A DNA stretch of 64,000 nt, taken from the NCBI GenBank assembly GCA_017304655.1, contig JAFKLY010000009.1, forward strand, positions 117,136 to 181,135. Reading direction: 5' to 3'. Below the pieces are notes generated by a model. It had not been told where the DNA came from. It saw only the letters and a list, made by a program, of their open reading frames with translations, and did no database searches. Positions within the stretch are counted from its first letter, which is position 1. Each line of letters begins with the position of its first letter. A program made the translations under genes and the position numbers. Source of the DNA: Sphingomonas sp. GTDB taxonomy: Bacteria; Pseudomonadota; Alphaproteobacteria; Sphingomonadales; Sphingomonadaceae. Shown one piece after another: positions 8,583 through 64,000 of this stretch.

Positions 8583-9619
8583 TCGCCGATCCAGGCAGGC
8601 GCGCGGCCCGGTGGTTCGTCCCAGGGCGCAATCGACCGACTGCTGTCCCGCTTCGATGGCCAGAAGCTATGACGCAGCGTCATCGCGAATTCGCGCGGAA
8701 TGGCATCGCGCCGCTTGCCGCGCACCGGTCGCAATGCCAAGGCGATCATGCGCCCGGCGAGCCAGCCGAGATTGGCCGCCATCAGCCCCGCCCAGCCCCC
8801 GGTCAGCATGAAGTAGCGGCGCCGCGCTTCATAGCGATAGACCGGCTGGGGGCGCACGGCGACCTGCCCGCCGCTGGCCACACCCGTCGCCGCACCGGCG
8901 ATGTGGACGATCCGGCTCGCAGGCACGAACCACAACGCCCAGCCGGCCCGGCCCATCCGGTGCATCAGTTCCACTTCCTCGAAGTAGAGGAAGAAGCCAT
9001 CGTCGAAGAGGCCAGTCTGGCGCAGGGCCTCGGCACGAAACATCACGCTCGCGCCGGTCAGCCAGTCGGCCGGCCCGGGATCAGAGCGTTCAACGAGCGT
9101 GGGCGTCACGCCCAGCAGTGCTCCCAGCTTGGCCATGCCGCAACCACGCACGAACTCGCGGCCGGGGCTCGGGAAGCGAAAGGCCGATCCGGCCAGTTCC
9201 CCGTCCGGCTCCAGCAGACGGCTGCAGACGCCGCCAAGATCGGGATGAGCCGCGATCACATCGAGCAGCGCCTTGATCGCGCCCGGTTCCACCACGGTGT
9301 CAGGATTGAGAAGATGGATGAATTCGGGCGGTTGCGGGCGCTGGAGGAGGCGCAGCATCGCCTGATTGTTCGCCCAGCCAAAGCCGCCATTGATCTCCAG
9401 CGGCAGCAGGCTGACCCAATCGCGCCAGGGCTGCGCAGAAAAATGATCGGCAAGGCGCTGCGCGGAGCCATCGCCGCTGCCTCCATCGACCACGATGACC
9501 TCGAACGGACCGGCCGTGTCGCGCTCGCTCGCCAGCGAGTCCACGCAGCGGATGACATAGTCCGCCGTCCGATAGTTCACGATCACGATCGCGAGAGGGG
9601 GGGCTGACATCTGCGGCAT
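8579..9619 (-). CDS. family 2 glycosyltransferase
   Basis: LAIVIVNYRTADYV, VVDGGSGDGS and LLNPDTVV. The inner ATG at 9619 is preferred over track start 9691. Confidence 0.8.
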   Translation of the reverse strand: MPQMSAPPLAIVIVNYRTADYVIRCVDSLASERDTAGPFEVIVVDGGSGDGSAQRLADHFSAQPWRDWVSLLPLEINGGFGWANNQAMLRLLQRPQPPEFIHLLNPDTVVEPGAIKALLDVIAAHPDLGGVCSRLLEPDGELAGSAFRFPSPGREFVRGCGMAKLGALLGVTPTLVERSDPGPADWLTGASVMFRAEALRQTGLFDDGFFLYFEEVELMHRMGRAGWALWFVPASRIVHIAGAATGVASGGQVAVRPQPVYRYEARRRYFMLTGGWAGLMAANLGWLAGRMIALALRPVRGKRRDAIPREFAMTLRHSFWPSKRDSSRSIAPWDEPPGRAPAWIGE

Positions 9620-9753
9620 GGCGGTTCCGGATAAGGGATCGATCGAACTGGGGTCAACGCTGCTGACCCAGCCCAGCCCTTTAGCCGCCAAATCCTAAAA
9701 AAAGCCGGTTCTCAAAACCGGTCGCGCAGCATCATCCGCCAGAGCCGATGAAA

Positions 9754-56563: not shown

Positions 56564-59500
56564 ATGCTGTCCCGCATCTTCATTGATCGCCCGATCCTCG
56601 CCTGGGTGATCGCGACGATCGTGATGCTCTCCGGCATCGGCGCCATTCAGGGCCTGCCTATCGCGCAATATCCGGACATCGCGCCGCCGCAGGTGAACAT
56701 CAGCGCCAATTACCCCGGCGCCTCGGCCGAGGCCGTGCAGAACAGTGTCACGCAGATCATCGAGCAATCGCTCAACGGCATCGACGGCCTGCTCTATTTC
56801 ACTTCTTCCTCCGACGCGCGCGGCCGCGCGAACATCACGGCGACCTTCTCCAAAGGGACCGACCCGGACATCGCGCAGGTGCAGGTGCAAAACCAGCTCC
56901 AGTCGGTCATCGCCCGCCTGCCACAGCAGGTGCAGCAGAACGGCGTGCAGGTCCGCAAGTCGAACAACGACATTCTGCTCATCACTGGCATTTACGACGC
57001 CTCGAACCGGATGAGCCCGCAGCAGGTTTCGGATTACCTCTCCTCCAATCTGCAGGATGCGCTCAGTCGCGTGCCCGGCGTCGGTCAGGTCAACGTCTTC
57101 GGCTCGCCCAATGCGATGCGCGTCTGGCTCAATCCGGATAGGCTGGCGAGCTATCAGCTGATGCCAGGCGACGTCATCAGCGCGCTCCAGGCGCAGAATA
57201 CGGAAATCGCAGCCGGCCAACTCGGCGCCGAACCCTCGGCGCCGGACCAATATCTCAACGTGCCGGTGACGGCGCAGTCACGCCTGCAGACGCCCGAGCA
57301 ATTCCGCGCCATCGTGGTCAAAACCCTCTCCAGTGGGGCCACGGTGCGGCTGGGAGATGTCGCGCGGGTCGAGATCGGCGCGGACAACTATACCGTCACC
57401 ATCCATGTCAACGGGCATCCCGGTGCCGGCGTGGCTTTCCAGCTGGCACCGGGCGCGGACGCACTGACCACCGCCGAACTCATCAAGACCAGGGTGCGCG
57501 AACTCGCCAAGACCTTCCCCGAGGGTTTCCAATATGGCTTCGCGCAGGACACGACGGCGTTCATCAAGCTCTCGATCTGGGAAGTCACCAAGACGCTGAT
57601 CGAGGCGATTATCCTCGTCGTGATCGTGATGTTCGTGTTCCTGCAGAACTGGCGGGCAACGCTGGTGCCGACCATCGCCGTGCCGGTGGTGCTGCTCGGC
57701 ACCTTCACCATCCTCTACATCGCCGGCTACACGATCAACACGCTGACGCTCTTCGGCCTCGTCCTGTCGATCGGCCTGCTGGTCGACGACGCCATCGTCG
57801 TGGTCGAGAATGTCGAACGGCTCATGGAAGAAAATCCGGGCATGACCGCGCGCGAGGCGACGATGGAGTCGATGCGCGAGATCACCATGGCCCTCATCGC
57901 CATCGCGCTCGTCCTCTCCGCCGTGTTCATGCCCATGGCCTTCTTCGGCGGCTCGACCGGCGTCATCTATCGCCAGTTCGCCATTACCATCGTCTCGGCC
58001 ATGGCGCTCTCCGTGCTGGTCGCCATCGTTCTCTCGCCCGCCCTGACCACCATCCTGCTCAAGCCGCGCCGCGAGGACGCCGCCGGTGGGGGAGCCGAGA
58101 AGAGCTGGATCGAACGGCGCCTGCCTCGGCTGGACGCAGGCCTCAAGCGCGCGCGCGATGGGTTTAACAGCCGCTTCGAGCGCGGCATCGACCGTTATCT
58201 GGTCGCCATTCGCAAGATCGTGGACCGGCGCAGCGCAGCCCTGATCGCTTATGGTCTGGTCGTCGTGCTGCTCGTCGTGCTGTTCCAGCGCCTGCCCACC
58301 GGCTTCCTGCCCAATGAAGATCAGGGCACGGGTATCGTCAGCTTCCAGCTCCCCACCGGCGCGACGATCAACCGCACCAAGGAAGTCCAGACCGCCGTCG
58401 AGCAATATTTCAAGACCTATGAGAGCGAAACGGTCGAAACCTTCTTCACCGTCGCCGGCACATCCGGGCCGGGCGGCGCGATCGGACAGAATGTCGGTCG
58501 CGGTTTCATCATGTTCAAACCGTGGGATGAGCGGCCGGGCAAACAGAACAGCGCCGAGGCCGTGACGCGCCGTGCGAGTCAGGCGCTGTCAGCCATGCGC
58601 GATGCACAGATCTTCGCGCTCACGCCACCCGCCGTGCCGGGCCTGGGGCAGTCGACCGGCTTCGAGGTGCAAATTCTCAACACCAGCGGAATGCCGCCGG
58701 AGCAATTCGCCGCAGCGCGCGACAAGGTGCTGGCCGCTGCCCGCGCCGACACGGAGCTGGCGGCGGTGCGCCTGCAGGAGATGCCGGACATCGCCTCGCT
58801 GCATATCGAGCTGGATCATCAGAAACTCGCAGCGCTGGGTTTGACGCAGGCGGATGTGAACACCACGCTCTCAGCCGCGTGGGGCGGGCGCTACATTAAT
58901 GATTTCGTCGATAATGGGCGCGTCAAGCGCGTCTATGTGCAGGGCGACATGCAGTTCCGCGCCAAGCCGGAGGACCTCGCGGCCTGGCAGGTGCGCGGCC
59001 GCGACGGCCAGATGGCGCCCTTCTCCGCCTTCTCGACCATCAGCTGGTCAATGGCACCGCCGGGGCTCTCGCGCTTCAACGGCATCCCCTCCTTCCAGAT
59101 CCTCGGCCAGTCCGCGCCCGGATACAGCTCCGGCGAGGCAATGGCCCGGATGGAAAAGCATGTAGCCGACGTGCCCGGTATCGGTCTCGCCTTCTCGGGC
59201 CTTTCCTATCAGGAGCGGCTGTCTGCGGGGCAGGGGCCGATCCTCTATGCGCTCTCGCTCCTCGTCGTGTTCCTTTTCCTCGCTGCGCTTTACGAGAGCT
59301 GGAGTATCCCTATCGCCGTGCTGCTCATCGTGCCGCTCGGCCTGATCGGTGCGGTGCTCGCCGTCTCGCTGCGCGGCCTCGTCAACGATATCTTCCTGCA
59401 GATCGGCCTGCTCACGACCATGGGCCTGGCCGCCAAGAACGCGATCCTGATGATCGAGTTCGCCGAGCAGGCGGAGAAGAGCGGCATGCGCATCATCGAT

Positions 59501-59779
59501 GCGGCGCTGCAGGCCGCGCGACTGCGCCTGCGACCGATCCTGATGACCAGCCTCGCCTTCATCTTCGGCGTGTTGCCGCTCGCCCTCTCCACCGGCGCCG
59601 GCGCCAATGGCCGCATCGCCATCGGCACCGCCGTGATCGGCGGGATGCTGACCGCGACAGTGCTCGCGCTGTTCTACATCCCGCTCTTCTTCATCATCGT
59701 GCGGCGCACGACCCGCGACACGCTGCAGAAGATCAGCGCTCGCATCGTCGCGCGCCGGGCGAGGTCATCGGATCAATGA
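56564..59779 (+). CDS. RND multidrug efflux permease (AcrB/MexB-type, HAE1)
   Basis: [17 protein letters not shown], with 1071 aa, 12-TM architecture and the typical [14 protein letters not shown]. Confidence 0.95.
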
Positions 59780-61179
59780 CGGTGCGCCGCCGCCTTTCCG
59801 CTGCCGCCTGCCTGCTGCTGGCCGGCTGCACGCTCGCGCCCCGATATGAGCGCCCCGCCGCGCCTGTAGCGACAAGCTGGCCGACCGGCGCGGCTTATGC
59901 CGCCGATTATGCCGGCCTGCCCAGCGCCAGCTATCGCGATCTCTTTGGCGACGACCGCCTGCAAAAGCTGATCGCGCTGGCGCTGGAGAATAATCGCGAC
60001 CTGCGCCAGGCCGCAGCCAATATCGAGCGTGCCCGCGCGCAATATCGCGTCCAGCGCGCTGCGCTACCTCCGCAGGTCAATGCCGGCGCCGATGTCTCGA
60101 CAGGCTCAGCATCCGGCGCACCCGTCGCCAACAATGCGTCGGCGGATATCTCCGTGACGGCTTATGAGCTCGATCTGTTTGGGCGGTTGCGCTCACTCAG
60201 CGACGCTGCTCGCAATAGCTATCTTGCCAGCGAGGCCGATGCCCAGACCGTCCGCCTGTCGCTGATCGGCACGCTTGCCCAGGCCTGGCTTGGCTATGCG
60301 GCAGACAAGAGCCTGCTCGATCTCAGCGTGGCGACCGCACAAACGGCGGGGCGGAGCGTGGAGCTGACGCAGGCGCGACTCTCAGGTGGTGTCGCTCCGC
60401 GCACGGATCTGCGTCAGGCGCAGACGATCCTCGCCACGGCCCAATCTGATACCGCCCGTTACACGACAGCGATCGCGCAAGATCGCAATCTGATTGAGCT
60501 ACTGGTCGGCGCGCCGGTCGATGCCGCCCTGCTACCGGAAGCTATTGAGACCGCCGGGGAGCGGATCGCGGTACCTGCAAACAGTACCGGTACGGACGTG
60601 CTGCTGCGCCGGCCGGACGTGATGGCCGCAGAATACAATCTGCGCGCTGCCAATGCGCAGATCGGCGCAGCGCGCGCCGCCCTGTTTCCGCGCATCACGT
60701 TAGGCGCGTTGATCGGCCTTGTCGGTCCATCACTTGAGCGGCTGTTCGGCGATGCCGGCCGCGAAGTCAGCCAAGGCTCCGCTGGCGCAAGCTATTCCGT
60801 CTTCCAGGGTGGCGCGGCGCGGGCGAACCTCGCGGCCAGCAAGGCCCAGCGCGATGCGCTGCTCGCCGCATATGAAAAGGCGATCCAGACCGCCTATCGC
60901 GAAACCGCCGATGCGCTGGCCCGGCTGGGGACGATAGATAAGCAGACCGCTGCTGACCGGCTGCGCACCGAGGCCGCCAAAGATGCGTGGGAGCTGGCCG
61001 AGGCGCGCTATCGCGGCGGTATCGACAGTTTCCTGCAAGCGCTCGACGCCCAGCGGAGCTATTATGCCGCACAGCGCACGCTCGTCGCGACCCAGCTCGA
61101 GGCTGCGAGCAACCGCGTCACGCTCTATCGTGCACTGGGCGGCGAGGCAGCGGCGGGAACGCCGGCTCCGGCGAACTAG
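59776..61179 (+). CDS. RND efflux outer-membrane factor lipoprotein (NodT/OprM family)
   Basis: Lipobox CLLLAGCTL and LENNRDLRQAAANIERA, with duplicated OEP repeats. The start overlaps the permease stop. Confidence 0.9.
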   Translation: MTVRRRLSAAACLLLAGCTLAPRYERPAAPVATSWPTGAAYAADYAGLPSASYRDLFGDDRLQKLIALALENNRDLRQAAANIERARAQYRVQRAALPPQVNAGADVSTGSASGAPVANNASADISVTAYELDLFGRLRSLSDAARNSYLASEADAQTVRLSLIGTLAQAWLGYAADKSLLDLSVATAQTAGRSVELTQARLSGGVAPRTDLRQAQTILATAQSDTARYTTAIAQDRNLIELLVGAPVDAALLPEAIETAGERIAVPANSTGTDVLLRRPDVMAAEYNLRAANAQIGAARAALFPRITLGALIGLVGPSLERLFGDAGREVSQGSAGASYSVFQGGAARANLAASKAQRDALLAAYEKAIQTAYRETADALARLGTIDKQTAADRLRTEAAKDAWELAEARYRGGIDSFLQALDAQRSYYAAQRTLVATQLEAASNRVTLYRALGGEAAAGTPAPAN

Positions 61180-61182
61180 GGC

Positions 61183-61593
61183 TTATTCGGACGCCAGTCT
61201 GGCCGCCGTCTCGCGAATCAGCGCGATCATGTTGGGCAGTCCCTGCGTCCGGTTCGAGGACAATTGCCGCTTGAGATCGAAAGGTCCCAGCGCGCCCTCG
61301 ATATCAAAGACGGCGACATCCGCCGGCTTGCGGTCCTGCACCGTCAGCAGGACCAGCGCGATGATACCTTTGGTGATCGCGGCATTGCTGTCCGCCAGAA
61401 AGTGCAGCGCGCCATCTTCGCGGCGGGTGGGATAGACCCAAACAGAGGCCGAACATCCCCGCACAAGCGTGGCGTCCGTTTTCAACGCGTCTGGCATGGG
61501 TTCGAGGGATTTGCCCAGGTCGATGAGCAGCCGGTAGCGCTCGTCCCCTTCGAGCAGTTCGTAGTCGTCCTGGATTTGCTGGAGCGTCGTCAT
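61183..61593 (-). CDS. sufE: SufE-family sulfur acceptor protein
   Basis: YRLLIDLGKSL and VRGCSASVWV (active-site Cys). ATG at 61593. Confidence 0.85.
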   Translation of the reverse strand: MTTLQQIQDDYELLEGDERYRLLIDLGKSLEPMPDALKTDATLVRGCSASVWVYPTRREDGALHFLADSNAAITKGIIALVLLTVQDRKPADVAVFDIEGALGPFDLKRQLSSNRTQGLPNMIALIRETAARLASE

Positions 61594-61653
61594 GCGCCCC
61601 ATATAGGCCGCGCGGCCCGCCAGGCCAGCAAAACCCGGCGGACCCTTGGCCGT

Positions 61654-61911
61654 CTAGAGGTCGATCCCGGCGGCAATCGCCTCAAGCTTGCGGATACGCT
61701 CCTTGAGGTCGGCAACGTCGATGCGCGTCGCAGCGGAGGGCGTGCTCGCCGGCTCCACATAGCCGCGCTGCCCGGCGACAAGCTCCAGCTCGGCGCGCTT
61801 GAGCGCCAGCCAGCCATTCCATCCCCGGAGGACGGCCATGGTGAGGATGCCGAGCCAGAGGGTCAGGGTGAGCGCCGCTGCGCCATATTGCAGGATGGTC
61901 AGGTCGGTCAT
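61654..61911 (-). CDS. small single-pass membrane protein, Psp-cluster paralogue 5 (most divergent)
   Basis: TM LTLTLWLGILTMAVL, then C-terminal LKERIRKLEAIAAGIDL. GGAAGGA RBS. Confidence 0.5.
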   Translation of the reverse strand: MTDLTILQYGAAALTLTLWLGILTMAVLRGWNGWLALKRAELELVAGQRGYVEPASTPSAATRIDVADLKERIRKLEAIAAGIDL

Positions 61912-61951
61912 GATAGCGTCCTTCCCGTCAAAAACCGAGCCTCTTGCAGGC

Positions 61952-62218
61952 TTACGGTCTGTCGATTTGCTTGAGTTTCTCGAATTCCCGATCGAGCGCG
62001 CTGGTGCTGTCGGTCGCCAGACGCTCCAGCACTGCGACGCGCTCCTTGAGCTGCTTCACCTCGTCGCGCAGACGATCGGCCTCTGCGTCATTGGCGCCCG
62101 CCCCGCCGCCGACGAATCGCTCGCCGCGGTGACGGTGGCCGACGCCCAGCTTTGCGCGAACGATGCCGCCGATCGTGACGATCAGTACGATGCCTATGAC
62201 CATTTCATAAGAATTCAT
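61952..62218 (-). CDS. small single-pass membrane protein with PspC-tail-like motif, paralogue 4
   Basis: TM MVIGIVLIVTIGGIV, then KERVAVLERLATDSTSALDREFEKL. AGGAGG RBS. Confidence 0.6.
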   Translation of the reverse strand: MNSYEMVIGIVLIVTIGGIVRAKLGVGHRHRGERFVGGGAGANDAEADRLRDEVKQLKERVAVLERLATDSTSALDREFEKLKQIDRP

Positions 62219-62249
62219 AATGAGCCCTCCTGCTCAAACCTGCTTCGTT

Positions 62250-62540
62250 TCAGTGCTCAATCCGACGCGGCGTGTCGTCCTGGCCCAGCTGGTCGATCTC
62301 CCTTGCGAGGTCGGCACCCCGATCGGTCACGATCCGCTCCAGCACCCGCACCCGCTGCTCCAGACGCTCGGTCTGCGCTGCATATTGCGCCGCCTTCTCT
62401 GCCGTTTGCGATCCCATGATCTCCAGCTCGCGCTCGCGCAGCGCGATGTTGCGCTTGTGGATCTTGTTCAGCATGTCCGCAATCACCGGGATGCCGACCA
62501 CGATCAGGAAGAAGCCGAGAACCAATATTGCCTTTTCCAT
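62250..62540 (-). CDS. small single-pass membrane protein with PspC-tail-like motif, paralogue 3
   Basis: TM ILVLGFFLIVVGIPVI, then EQRVRVLERIVTDRGADLAREIDQL. GAGGGGG RBS. Confidence 0.6.
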   Translation of the reverse strand: MEKAILVLGFFLIVVGIPVIADMLNKIHKRNIALRERELEIMGSQTAEKAAQYAAQTERLEQRVRVLERIVTDRGADLAREIDQLGQDDTPRRIEH

Positions 62541-62550
62541 GGCGTCCCCC

Positions 62551-62889
62551 TCAATTGCGCGTGCCGCGCAGGCTCTCGATTTCGTGCGTAAGGCTGAGCG
62601 AACTGTCGGTCACGATCCGCTCGACATTGGCGAGCCGATCCTTGACCGCGCCCAGCTCGGCGCGAAGCTGCGCATTCTCCTGACTGAGCAGCTTGATGCG
62701 CTCGACGGTTTCCTCATTCTTCATCGGATAGACCGCCTTGCCCCAGCTGTTCTCCAGCGGATACCCGTTGCGCACGCGCAACCAGGTGGTGAAGATCCAG
62801 CCCACAATGCCGAGGAGGCCCAGCAGCATTCCGCCGCCGATGATCCAGGGCAGATTTGGGACGAGCATGTCCGCAGCGTCTTGTTTCAT
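62551..62889 (-). CDS. small single-pass membrane protein with PspC-tail-like motif, paralogue 2
   Basis: TM WIIGGGMLLGLLGIVGWIF, then KDRLANVERIVTDSSLSLTHEIESL. Confidence 0.6.
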   Translation of the reverse strand: MKQDAADMLVPNLPWIIGGGMLLGLLGIVGWIFTTWLRVRNGYPLENSWGKAVYPMKNEETVERIKLLSQENAQLRAELGAVKDRLANVERIVTDSSLSLTHEIESLRGTRN

Positions 62890-62974
62890 TGGTCGATAAT
62901 CCCTGTTGGCAGGGAGGCGTGGCCGATCCCGTTTGCCGATCTGACCCGCTCTCCCCCGTATCTATTCTGAGCGC

Positions 62975-63220
62975 TTACGCTTGGCGCAGCTGCTCGATTT
63001 CCTGCTCCAGCCGGCGCGGCTGCTCCGTGACGATCCGCTCCAGCACTTCCACGCGCCGGCGCATCTCGCCCACTTCCTGCCGGTTCGCGACCGGCTCGCT
63101 GTGCATCGCCGGTTGAGCGGCCAGCGCCTTGCGCACCTTGCGGCGGCCATAAGCCTGGATCGTCAGCAGGGTTGCCACGGCGCTCAGTGCTCCGAGAATG
63201 AATGCCGATATCGGGTCCAT
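62975..63220 (-). CDS. small single-pass membrane protein with PspC-tail-like motif, paralogue 1
   Basis: TM ISAFILGALSAVATLLTI, then RRRVEVLERIVTEQPRRLEQEIEQL. GGGGGAA RBS. Confidence 0.6.
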   Translation of the reverse strand: MDPISAFILGALSAVATLLTIQAYGRRKVRKALAAQPAMHSEPVANRQEVGEMRRRVEVLERIVTEQPRRLEQEIEQLRQA

Positions 63221-63249
63221 CGTCTTTCCCCCTTCTCGCCGCCAGCCGC

Positions 63250-63630
63250 TCAGCGCAGGCTGTCGATCTCGTCCGCCAGGCGCGTGTTGCGGCTGGTATA
63301 GAAGGCCTCGATGTCACCGAGGCGGCGGTCGATGTCGCGAAACTTGCTGCGCACGTCCCGGGTCGAGCGCGCCGGATTGGTCCGCACGCCTTGCCAGAAC
63401 CTCTCATCGTCACGGTCGGCGTAAAGGCCCGAAGGCTTCGGTTCGGCCATCCAGGCGGCGAGGAAATAGGCGATCAGCGTCCAGGGAAAGGCCCCCATGA
63501 GCGTCACCAGCACGGCGCCGATGCGAACCCAGAGCACGTCGATCCCGGTATAGTCGGCGATGCCGGCGCAGACGCCCATCCATTTGGCATTCTGCTTGTC
63601 GAGATAGAATTTGGTGCGACGAGCGGACAT
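63250..63630 (-). CDS. pspC: envelope stress response membrane protein PspC
   Basis: PspC domain FYLDKQNAKWMGVCAGIADYTGIDVLWVRIG and C-terminal DRRLGDIEAFYTSRNTRLADEIDSL. Confidence 0.85.
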   Translation of the reverse strand: MSARRTKFYLDKQNAKWMGVCAGIADYTGIDVLWVRIGAVLVTLMGAFPWTLIAYFLAAWMAEPKPSGLYADRDDERFWQGVRTNPARSTRDVRSKFRDIDRRLGDIEAFYTSRNTRLADEIDSLR

Positions 63631-63632
63631 GG

Positions 63633-63899
63633 TCAGTTCCTCCGGTCGAATGTGTAGTCCTCGGCCTCGATCGGGCGGGCCGGACGGAAATCGGGGTTGT
63701 CGGCGGCGATGATGCGCTCGACGGTCTGCAGCCTTTCCTCCAGGCGGCGGGCGAGAATGTGCATCTCGTCGAGCAGGCGCTCATCCTCGTCAGTGATCTT
63801 CGGCGCCTGCTTCCACTTGGTCACATAATGGAAGATCAGCCAGGGCATGCCGATGAAGAGCATGCCGCAGATGACGATGGGCAAAAGGACCTCTTCCAT
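63633..63899 (-). CDS. pspB: envelope stress response membrane protein PspB
   Basis: N-terminal TM LLPIVICGMLFIGMPWLIFHY, then ERLLDEMHILARRLEERLQTVERIIAADNPDF, as in PspB. Confidence 0.8.
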   Translation of the reverse strand: MEEVLLPIVICGMLFIGMPWLIFHYVTKWKQAPKITDEDERLLDEMHILARRLEERLQTVERIIAADNPDFRPARPIEAEDYTFDRRN

Positions 63900-63902
63900 G
63901 GC

Positions 63903-64000
63903 TCAGTCCTTCTTCTGCGCGGCCTTGAGCGCCGCAAGTTCGGCCTCGACCTTGTCGTTGGACTGCAGCTCGGCAATCTCCTGCTCCAGCGTCTTGGGCT
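63903..64000 (-). CDS. pspA: phage shock protein A (PspA/IM30), C-terminal end only
   Basis: Own translation gives ...PKTLEQEIAELQSNDKVEAELAALKAAQKKD, with stop at 63905-63903. It has coiled-coil character and the position expected for pspA. Confidence 0.6.
   Translation of the reverse strand, partial: PKTLEQEIAELQSNDKVEAELAALKAAQKKD

Follow-up and report, generated by a model that had tools for sequence, protein, structure and literature searches.

What are the five small genes that follow pspC in a phage shock protein (psp) locus of Sphingomonas sp., and what might their products add to the Psp response? The question is raised by a stretch of 64,000 nt of contig JAFKLY010000009.1 (assembly GCA_017304655.1), referred to in the following as the window, in which pspB, pspC and an array of five open reading frames (ORFs), called m1 to m5, occupy positions 61654-63899; all of them, together with the end of pspA, lie co-oriented on the minus strand. 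To judge from their sequences, the five mini-proteins are divergent paralogues of the PspB family that carry a PspC-type tail, the match of this tail being longer with PspC than with PspB. The best explanation, to which a probability of about 0.6 is assigned as a whole, is that the mini-genes arose by old tandem duplications within the pspF/pspABC locus of Sphingomonadales and that their products would be extra PspB-family subunits of an enlarged PspBC-type complex, adding PspA-docking tails under the control of PspF and sigma-54.

Four of the five ORFs (m1-m4) end in R-[VLI]-x-V-[LV]-E-R-I-[AV]-T-D...L-x-x-E-I-E-x-L-R, and the tails quoted in the original prediction, an earlier reading of the letters of this DNA, were found to be exact; m5 has a truncated version of the tail only (RIDVADLKERIRKLEAIAAGIDL), as the earlier wording "four of them" had implied. 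In 268 non-redundant proteins of the m1-m4 type the consensus of the tail is R(100%)-[VLI]-x-V-[LV]-E(100%)-R(96%)-I(84%)-[AV]-T(95%)-D(93%) ... L-x-x-E-I(94%)-[ED]-x-L(100%)-R(91%).

The profile built from these 268 sequences was used for profile-profile comparisons with hhalign. It matched PspC with a probability of 94% and an E value of 8.4e-8 over 41 columns (PspC 86-126, up to the last residue), and PspB with a probability of 93% and an E value of 3.2e-7 over 25 columns, which belong to the cytoplasmic helix, and PspB and PspC themselves were aligned with a probability of 45% (E 2e-4, 65 columns). The aligned region of PspC corresponds approximately to residues 81-119 of E. coli PspC and overlaps the C-terminal part of its leucine zipper (77-98). 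The comparison of the mini-proteins with the coiled-coil protein PspA yielded an E value of only 0.15, those with reversed PspB and reversed PspC 0.008 and 0.006, and the best of 30 column-shuffled profiles 0.015 for PspB and 0.05 for PspC. Because none of these controls was significant, the similarity of the tails is specific and not compositional. Thus, the profile-profile check that had been proposed came out significant for the m1-m4 profile, with all controls at 0.006 or above, and it bore out the earlier claim that the motif is common to the C-terminus of the PspC encoded here and, with a shorter overlap, to PspB.

Iterated searches led to the same relatives. A jackhmmer model started from m1 retrieved m2-m4 at E values of 1e-18 to 1e-23, the PspB of the window at 1.2e-4 and E. 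coli PspB at 2.6e-5, a model started from m4 retrieved the PspC of the window at 9e-5 and E. coli PspB at 3.4e-5, and iterated hidden Markov models (HMMs) seeded with m1, m3 or m4 converged on one family, with E. coli PspB at 2.6e-5 to 8.5e-5. The matches to curated models were below the cutoffs. No Pfam model was matched at threshold by m1-m5, and only m3 scored on PF06667 (12.6 bits, cutoff 25.6); on TIGR02976 (PspB; cutoff 51.7), m3 attained 16.0 bits (E 0.011) and m1 13.7 bits (E 0.059). Sub-threshold matches to TIGR02978 (PspC) were obtained with m3 at an E value of 2.3e-5 over model positions 39-121, which reach the transmembrane (TM) region of PspC and not its N-terminal part, and with m2 (E 0.0019) and m4 (E 0.0067) over the C-terminal positions of about 74-121. 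In a family alignment, 7 of the 48 members matched PF06667 at E<=0.01, the best E value being 7.3e-5. The PspC domain PF04024 was not matched by any of m1-m5 at E<=1, and the SHOCT family of bihelical domains, which Ravi et al. 2024 (PMC11237479) associate with Psp partners, was matched neither by m1-m5 at E<=1 nor by the 48 family members at E<=0.01; in addition, AlphaFold2 (AF2) predicts one continuous tail helix and no hairpin. Searches of the defence and phage libraries PADLOC and PHROGs yielded nothing meaningful. The affiliation of m5 is with the other mini-proteins: its hhalign comparison with the m1-m4 family had a probability of 94.6% (E 7.1e-8, 55 columns), and its comparisons with PspB (0.7%, E 0.08, 11 columns) and PspC (0.2%, E 0.27, 25 columns) were not significant.

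Of note, the mini-protein profile also matches several very long proteins (P0182, P0193, P0241 and P0243, 658-1776 aa) through 6-14 repeated stretches. In P0193 and P0241 the repeats have the form "RLxYLExxxGDSADKH", and in P0182 a different coiled-coil repeat is present. The long proteins have the appearance of coiled-coil repeat proteins, and these are probably summed weak matches and not cases of homology. Five fusion-like proteins (P0014, P0017, P0095, P0121, P0145), which look like gene-call or frameshift artefacts of metagenomes, and four proteins with odd N-termini (P0124, P0173, P0183, P0230), which look like gene-call or frameshift artefacts, were excluded as evidence. In a fusion of the type TM-tail-TM-tail, the second tail would fall on the wrong side of the membrane.

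Each of the five proteins has one hydrophobic 19-aa window near the N-terminus (Kyte-Doolittle 1.9-2.6), in agreement with the single N-terminal TM helix that had been claimed for each ORF. The number of lysine and arginine residues is 0-1 before the TM segment and 2-5 within the 15 residues after it, and the pattern of the local PspB is identical. Because of this charge pattern, the positive-inside rule predicts that m1-m5 are bitopic inner-membrane proteins with an N-out/C-in orientation and a cytoplasmic tail, like PspB. The AF2 model of m3, calculated with the family alignment, is one helix comprising residues 2-87 (mean pLDDT 64), and that of m2 (overall pLDDT 76) consists of a TM helix (3-40), which is joined by a loop of low confidence (41-58) to an uninterrupted tail helix of 52 residues (59-110), in which the motif has pLDDT values of 78-90. 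A long, isolated helix whose polar face is invariant, as modelled here, suggests a subunit that folds against partners. A sequence search of the PDB retrieved only chance coiled-coil matches (E>=0.27) and nothing related by sequence.

The array is not a peculiarity of the window. Proteins identical to those of the window are encoded on short metagenome contigs in the same gene order, and the locus of Sphingobium sp. SYK-6 (AP012222.1) contains a divergent pspF, an ORF of 56 aa, pspA, pspB and pspC, followed by genes of 96, 110, 97, 87 and 86 aa. The genes further downstream in SYK-6 are unlike those of the window, and since the flanking genes differ between genomes, it can be concluded that the array travels with pspABC and not with a downstream neighbor. 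A scan with an alignment of m2 orthologues, using one genome per GTDB species, revealed at least 441 confirmed loci, a sample that was selected on the presence of m2 and thus gives no frequency of pspABC without the array. The best 80 loci were analyzed; they belong to Sphingomonas, Sphingobium, Sphingopyxis, Novosphingobium, Qipengyuania, Croceibacterium, Stakelama, Chakrabartia, Allosphingosinicella and Sphingomicrobium and to unclassified metagenome-assembled genomes (MAGs) of Sphingomonadales. Their genes were annotated by HMM-envelope coordinates, because a phmmer best-hit classification was too noisy, merging neighbors and losing pspB. In 74 loci, 1.5 kb or more of DNA was available upstream of the first mini-gene, and in all of them pspC was present on the same strand within 600 nt upstream, which substantiates the proposed synteny of the mini-genes with pspABC in Sphingomonadales, and the median gap between mini-genes was 29 nt. 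The 71 complete loci have arrays of three (4 loci), four (21), five (36), six (6) or seven (4) members. One MAG contig differs in its organization: in L030, at 750-2032, a C-terminal fragment of pspF abuts m2-m4-m5 without pspA, pspB and pspC, which represents either a deletion variant or a misassembly.

Clustering of 339 mini-proteins resulted in four groups, the presence of which was counted over 72 loci. Group A (m2-type) is present in 72/72 loci, usually with two genes per genome, a gene of about 96 aa at position 1 (A1) and the m2 orthologue of about 109 aa at position 2 (A2); group B (m4-type) is present in 67/72, group C (m3-type) in 53/72 and group D (m5-type) in 67/72 loci. In 67 of the 71 complete loci, the m5-type gene occurs once and is the last mini-gene listed. 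AACBD (25 loci) and AABD (14 loci) are the most frequent arrangements. The order in the window is BACBD, as its m1 clusters with the m4 type and takes the position that is held by the m2-like A1 gene in most genomes, including SYK-6; the gap between pspC and the first mini-gene is 29 nt in the window versus 196 nt in SYK-6 (L005; first mini-gene at 9354-9644). The TM and juxtamembrane sequences are conserved group by group, and the tail is common to all groups. From the group presence, the gene orders and the BACBD array of the window, it follows that in this family a conserved core of old age is combined with gain and loss that still go on.

The family is large and its members are seldom named. 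At least 7996 database proteins match the m1-m4 profile at E<=1e-3, nearly all of them unnamed or annotated as "hypothetical protein". Among the 120 homologues listed, the organism names are Sphingobium or Sphingomonas without exception, and precomputed Pfam domains are absent from the listed homologues apart from two apparent fusions. An exhaustive HMM search of a library of representatives at 50% identity retrieved 2050 clusters with a cutoff of E<=1e-3 and 169 with one of E<=1e-10, and only two of 10 divergent family representatives carry names, namely Sphingomonas and Novosphingobium. The most conserved member is m2, the orthologues of which are 60-89% identical in 80 Sphingomonadales genomes; its juxtamembrane segment WIFTTWLRVRNGYPLENSWGKAVYP is invariant, and WIFTTWLRVRNGYPLENSWGKA(I/V)YP is almost invariant. 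The m3 protein is 82% identical to its homologue in SYK-6, which is named "Phage shock protein B" in one source.

Selection was quantified with the Nei-Gojobori method for the orthologues of m2-m5 in three Sphingobium genomes. The dN/dS values were 0.10-0.36 for m2-m5 (m3, 0.17-0.20; m4, 0.10-0.35; m5, 0.22-0.33) and 0.06-0.23 for PspB and PspC. These ratios indicate that the mini-genes are protein-coding and under purifying selection that is somewhat more relaxed than that on pspB and pspC. With dN/dS below 1 and orthologues in many genera, the view that the ORFs are real, conserved genes holds.

Since the window ends inside pspA, the promoter was looked at in related loci. A sigma-54 -24/-12 element of the form TGGCAC-N5-yTGCw is present in 69/73 intergenic regions between pspF and pspA, compared to 4/73 size-matched random regions. 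The strict consensus TGGCAY-N5-TTGCW was discarded as the element, as it occurs in 6/73 regions only; scoring with fixed GG/GC had given the form mentioned above. In most of the loci listed, the sigma-54-type element is situated about 270-345 nt upstream of pspA and thus upstream of a small ORF, and the strict consensus was not matched anywhere from pspA to the end of the array in the related loci. One upstream promoter element, none inside and short gaps therefore support, without proving it, a single PspF-dependent operon of pspABC and the mini-genes. The small ORF between pspF and pspA encodes 56 aa with one hydrophobic segment in SYK-6 (L005 7574-7744 (+)); it is the "X" of Table S3 of Ravi et al. 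2024 (PMC11237479) and probably corresponds to ZMO1062 of Zymomonas mobilis. At the other end of the array, sufE is the downstream neighbor on the same strand in 54 of the 71 complete loci (median distance, 63 nt) and may close the psp operon; in the window, no obvious Shine-Dalgarno sequence precedes its called ATG. For Z. mobilis, which also belongs to Sphingomonadales, the genes listed as induced by ethanol include pspA, pspB and pspC (ZMO1063-1065) and sufE (ZMO1067) (PMC3495753). Nothing was found in the literature on the genes between pspC and sufE of this species (ZMO1066).

How might the mini-proteins act? They would be co-transcribed with pspABC and made together with PspA, PspB and PspC upon the release of PspF, and they would insert into the inner membrane beside PspB and PspC, the tails being cytoplasmic. 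The conserved tail (R...E-R..T-D...L..EIE.LR) would pair with the homologous helices of PspB and PspC, or bind PspA, or both. Binding to PspA is proposed because the same region of E. coli PspC determines PspA binding: leucine-zipper mutants of E. coli PspC lose PspA binding and psp induction and retain PspB binding (PMC3068692). The original prediction had assumed that this zipper mediates the switching between both partners, a premise that is broadly right for PspA binding and induction and that does not extend to PspB binding. The outcome would be a larger hetero-oligomeric complex of the PspBC type with several docking tails for PspA, and the divergent TM and juxtamembrane segments of the orthologous groups might provide distinct membrane contacts or inputs. 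The roles that the original prediction had put forward, those of extra sensors, decoys or scaffolds for PspA, are reasonable possibilities.

Several points weigh against this explanation. None of m1-m5 attains the thresholds of the curated PspB or PspC models, m5 is tied to PspB and PspC solely via the other mini-proteins, and the promoter evidence comes from related genomes only. The AF2 monomers of m3 and m2 are long single helices of modest confidence (pLDDT 64 and 76) and are uninformative on partners, and literature searches on Psp in Sphingomonas and its relatives found no data on transcription, translation or interactions of the mini-proteins in any organism. Last, on the present evidence the tails may either activate the response, if they are PspC-like and bind PspA, or silence it, if they are PspB-like and bind the tail of PspC.

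Silencing is the essence of the main alternative, which is modelled on the cytoplasmic domain of Yersinia PspB. The mini-proteins would be negative modulators or decoys, the tails of which bind the PspC tail or soak up PspA, hold the system off and raise or tune the threshold of induction. That interactions between PspB and PspC through their cytoplasmic domains silence the response is stated in the title of a 2016 paper (via PMC5596341), and the PspB-like architecture, with one N-terminal TM segment and a helix that is predicted to be cytoplasmic, and the alignment of the PspB helix with the motif (E 3.2e-7) would fit such a role. However, the similarity to PspC is longer, with 41 columns compared to 25 for PspB, and extends over the terminal LxxEIExLR, which is absent from PspB, and the location in an induced operon would mean a negative feedback, which is possible but not required. 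This role is regarded as unlikely. In quite another role, and one that seems still harder to credit, the mini-proteins would be effectors independent of PspA that stabilize the inner membrane or counter a toxic envelope component and use the tail for self-assembly only. PspG and PspD of E. coli have been proposed as similar small membrane effectors. In Yersinia, PspBC protect against secretin-induced death without an essential role of PspA (summarized in PMC9239133), and both the copy number of 3-7 and the fact that each group has its own conserved TM/juxtamembrane sequence, such as the invariant NGYPLENSWGKAVYP of m2, would be in line with effectors. Nevertheless, the most conserved part of all mini-proteins is the tail, which is shared with the PspA-binding region of PspC, and there is no similarity to PspD and no match to other effector families in Pfam, NCBIfam, PADLOC and PHROGs.

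The short helical nature of the proteins, the weak matches to ZapB and bZIP and the matches of the profile to long repeat proteins could also be taken to mean that the ORFs are non-functional and that the motif is a coiled-coil or compositional artefact of a GC-rich genome. However, dN/dS values well below 1, orthologous groups kept across many genera, the invariant polar positions (R and E 100%, R 96%, T 95%, D 93%) and the non-significant PspA, reversed and shuffled controls make this extremely improbable. The preferred explanation, extra PspB-family subunits with PspA-docking tails, could be taken one step further. The PspBC sensor might have been expanded to a fixed set of about seven subunits of the PspB fold (PspB, PspC and usually five mini-proteins from four or five groups) in one hetero-oligomeric, tail-assembled, membrane-anchored helical bundle, in which each TM/juxtamembrane segment reads a different perturbation and which as a whole acts as a multivalent nucleation platform for the ESCRT-III-like polymer of PspA. 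In this specific form the idea is rather improbable. It might also be speculated that the restriction to Sphingomonadales is linked to the unusual glycosphingolipid envelope of this order.

To our knowledge, it is still unresolved how PspB and PspC sense membrane damage and signal to PspA, and a structure of either protein is not available. The array represents a natural experiment: in hundreds of species, five copies of the interaction helix of PspB and PspC have been made and are maintained by selection. Its invariant surface, R...ER..TD...L..EIE.LR, is a target for mutagenesis aimed at mapping the PspA-binding interface or the interface of PspB-PspC pairing, and the array shows that a "PspBC" module may far exceed the size known from the models of enterobacteria. 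Z. mobilis is an industrial producer of ethanol and belongs to the same order, and with its pspABC genes being ethanol-induced, the accessory genes may have a bearing on the tolerance to solvents. The value of the locus lies in such follow-up experiments rather than in its discovery, because the pattern is already in the literature, as discussed below.

The gene calls on which the analysis is based are compiled in Table 1. The five co-oriented, tightly spaced ORFs of 81-112 aa with gaps of 10-85 nt were confirmed as they had been reported. All five start with ATG, and the purine-rich, Shine-Dalgarno-like stretches that had been noted are present before 5/5 starts (GAAGGGGGAAAG, CAGGGA, GAGGGGGA, AGGAGGG and GGGAAGGA for m1 to m5), the weakest being that of m2. 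The GC content at third codon positions of m1-m5 (0.75-0.86) is the same as that of pspB and pspC. The pspA fragment matches the C-terminus of the full PspA (PF04012) of SYK-6, and an identical metagenome contig (L001) includes 193 aa of PspA upstream. A weak terminator-like stem-loop is found in the 40-nt gap between m4 and m5 at 61938-61952 (-), with AGCCTGCAAGAGGCT followed by CGGTTTTTGA; it is not significant (4 sites per 3 kb versus 2.0 expected). Beyond sufE, the opposite strand carries an RND-type efflux pump gene, the end of which overlaps the start of a gene for an outer-membrane factor (PF02321, OEP, on contig L001); these efflux genes are unrelated to the array.

Table 1. Positions of the genes of the psp locus and its neighborhood in the window, listed in the order of transcription of the psp genes.
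Feature	Position	Strand	Length (aa)	Gap to preceding gene (nt)	Remarks
pspA 3' end	63903-63998	-			last 31 codons and stop, rest beyond the window edge; translation PKTLEQEIAELQSNDKVEAELAALKAAQKKD, then stop
pspB	63633-63899	-	88		PF06667 E 2.4e-26, TIGR02976 E 2.1e-22 (both above cutoff); N-terminal TM helix and cytoplasmic helix with RLEERLQTVERIIAADNP
pspC	63250-63630	-	126	2	PF04024 E 3.8e-16, TIGR02978 E 3.8e-37 (above cutoff); PspC domain, then C-terminal tail RLGDIEAFYTSRNTRLADEIDSLR
m1	62975-63220	-	81	29	tail motif RVEVLERIVTEQPRRLEQEIEQL at ~62987-63055
m2	62551-62889	-	112	85	tail RLANVERIVTDSSLSLTHEIESL at ~62569-62637
m3	62250-62540	-	96	10	AEKAAQYAAQTERLEQRVRVLERIVTDRGADLAREIDQL, motif at ~62286-62354
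m4	61952-62218	-	88	31	tail RVAVLERLATDSTSALDREFEKL at ~61973-62041
m5	61654-61911	-	85	40	truncated tail RIDVADLKERIRKLEAIAAGIDL at ~61657-61725
sufE	61183-61602	-	139	51	PF02657 E 5e-33
efflux genes	56564-61179	+	1071 and 467		RND-type pump and outer-membrane factor

Among the known components of Psp systems, PspB of E. coli and Yersinia is similar to the mini-proteins in being small and encoded in a psp locus and in having one N-terminal TM segment and a C-terminal helix with R-[ILV]-x-x-[LV]-E-x-I, which in the mini-proteins is predicted to be cytoplasmic. In contrast to PspB, the mini-proteins have the additional terminal L-x-x-E-I-E-x-L-R, which is present in PspC, they lack the HY(V/I)TKWK juxtamembrane sequence of the local PspB, and they score 12.6-16 bits, below the cutoffs of 25.6 (Pfam) and 51.7 (TIGR). 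The tail of PspC, that is, the LeuZ region of the E. coli protein, is the best and longest match and extends up to the PspC C-terminus; however, the mini-proteins have a single TM segment without a PF04024 domain and are thus not PspC proteins. With PspD and PspG of Enterobacteria they share the character of small accessory proteins that are encoded or regulated with pspABC and the function of which is poorly understood. No mini-family model matched E. coli PspD (psp locus L008 in the ORF database) at E<=1e-3, and PspD is confined to Gammaproteobacteria according to Ravi et al. (PMC11237479).

The closest known system is the pspFABC operon of Erythrobacter litoralis. The original prediction had not recognized the array as a described Psp component, which has to be corrected: Ravi et al. 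2024 (mSystems, PMC11237479, Table S3, anchor AOL22920.1) list the same architecture as "PspB duplicates", with a divergent PspF, X, PspA, PspB, PspC+PspB and then five small proteins with a PspB domain, each having a hydrophobic segment at the N-terminus. The gene order is that of the window, of SYK-6 and of the 71 complete loci, a match established on the architecture; Erythrobacter belongs to Sphingomonadales, and the Erythrobacteraceae loci of Qipengyuania (L062) and Croceibacterium (L056) hold 5-6 mini-genes. Because these authors read the C-terminus of PspC as a fused divergent PspB domain (PMC11237479), the "PspC C-terminal motif" is better called a PspB-domain helix. The surveys PMC3041696 and PMC9239133 do not mention the array. 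The description of 2024 comprises one line and one example, without orthologous groups, order-wide conservation or a function, and its label for the N-terminal segments is "SIG", but the charge pattern found here argues for uncleaved N-out/C-in anchors. The array of the window differs from the usual one in its first gene, a lineage-specific m4-like copy instead of the m2-like gene of about 96 aa. Thus, the genomic pattern was already catalogued in 2024, and what is new here is its order-wide conservation in at least 441 species-level genomes, the orthologous groups, the invariant motif, the purifying selection and the promoter context.

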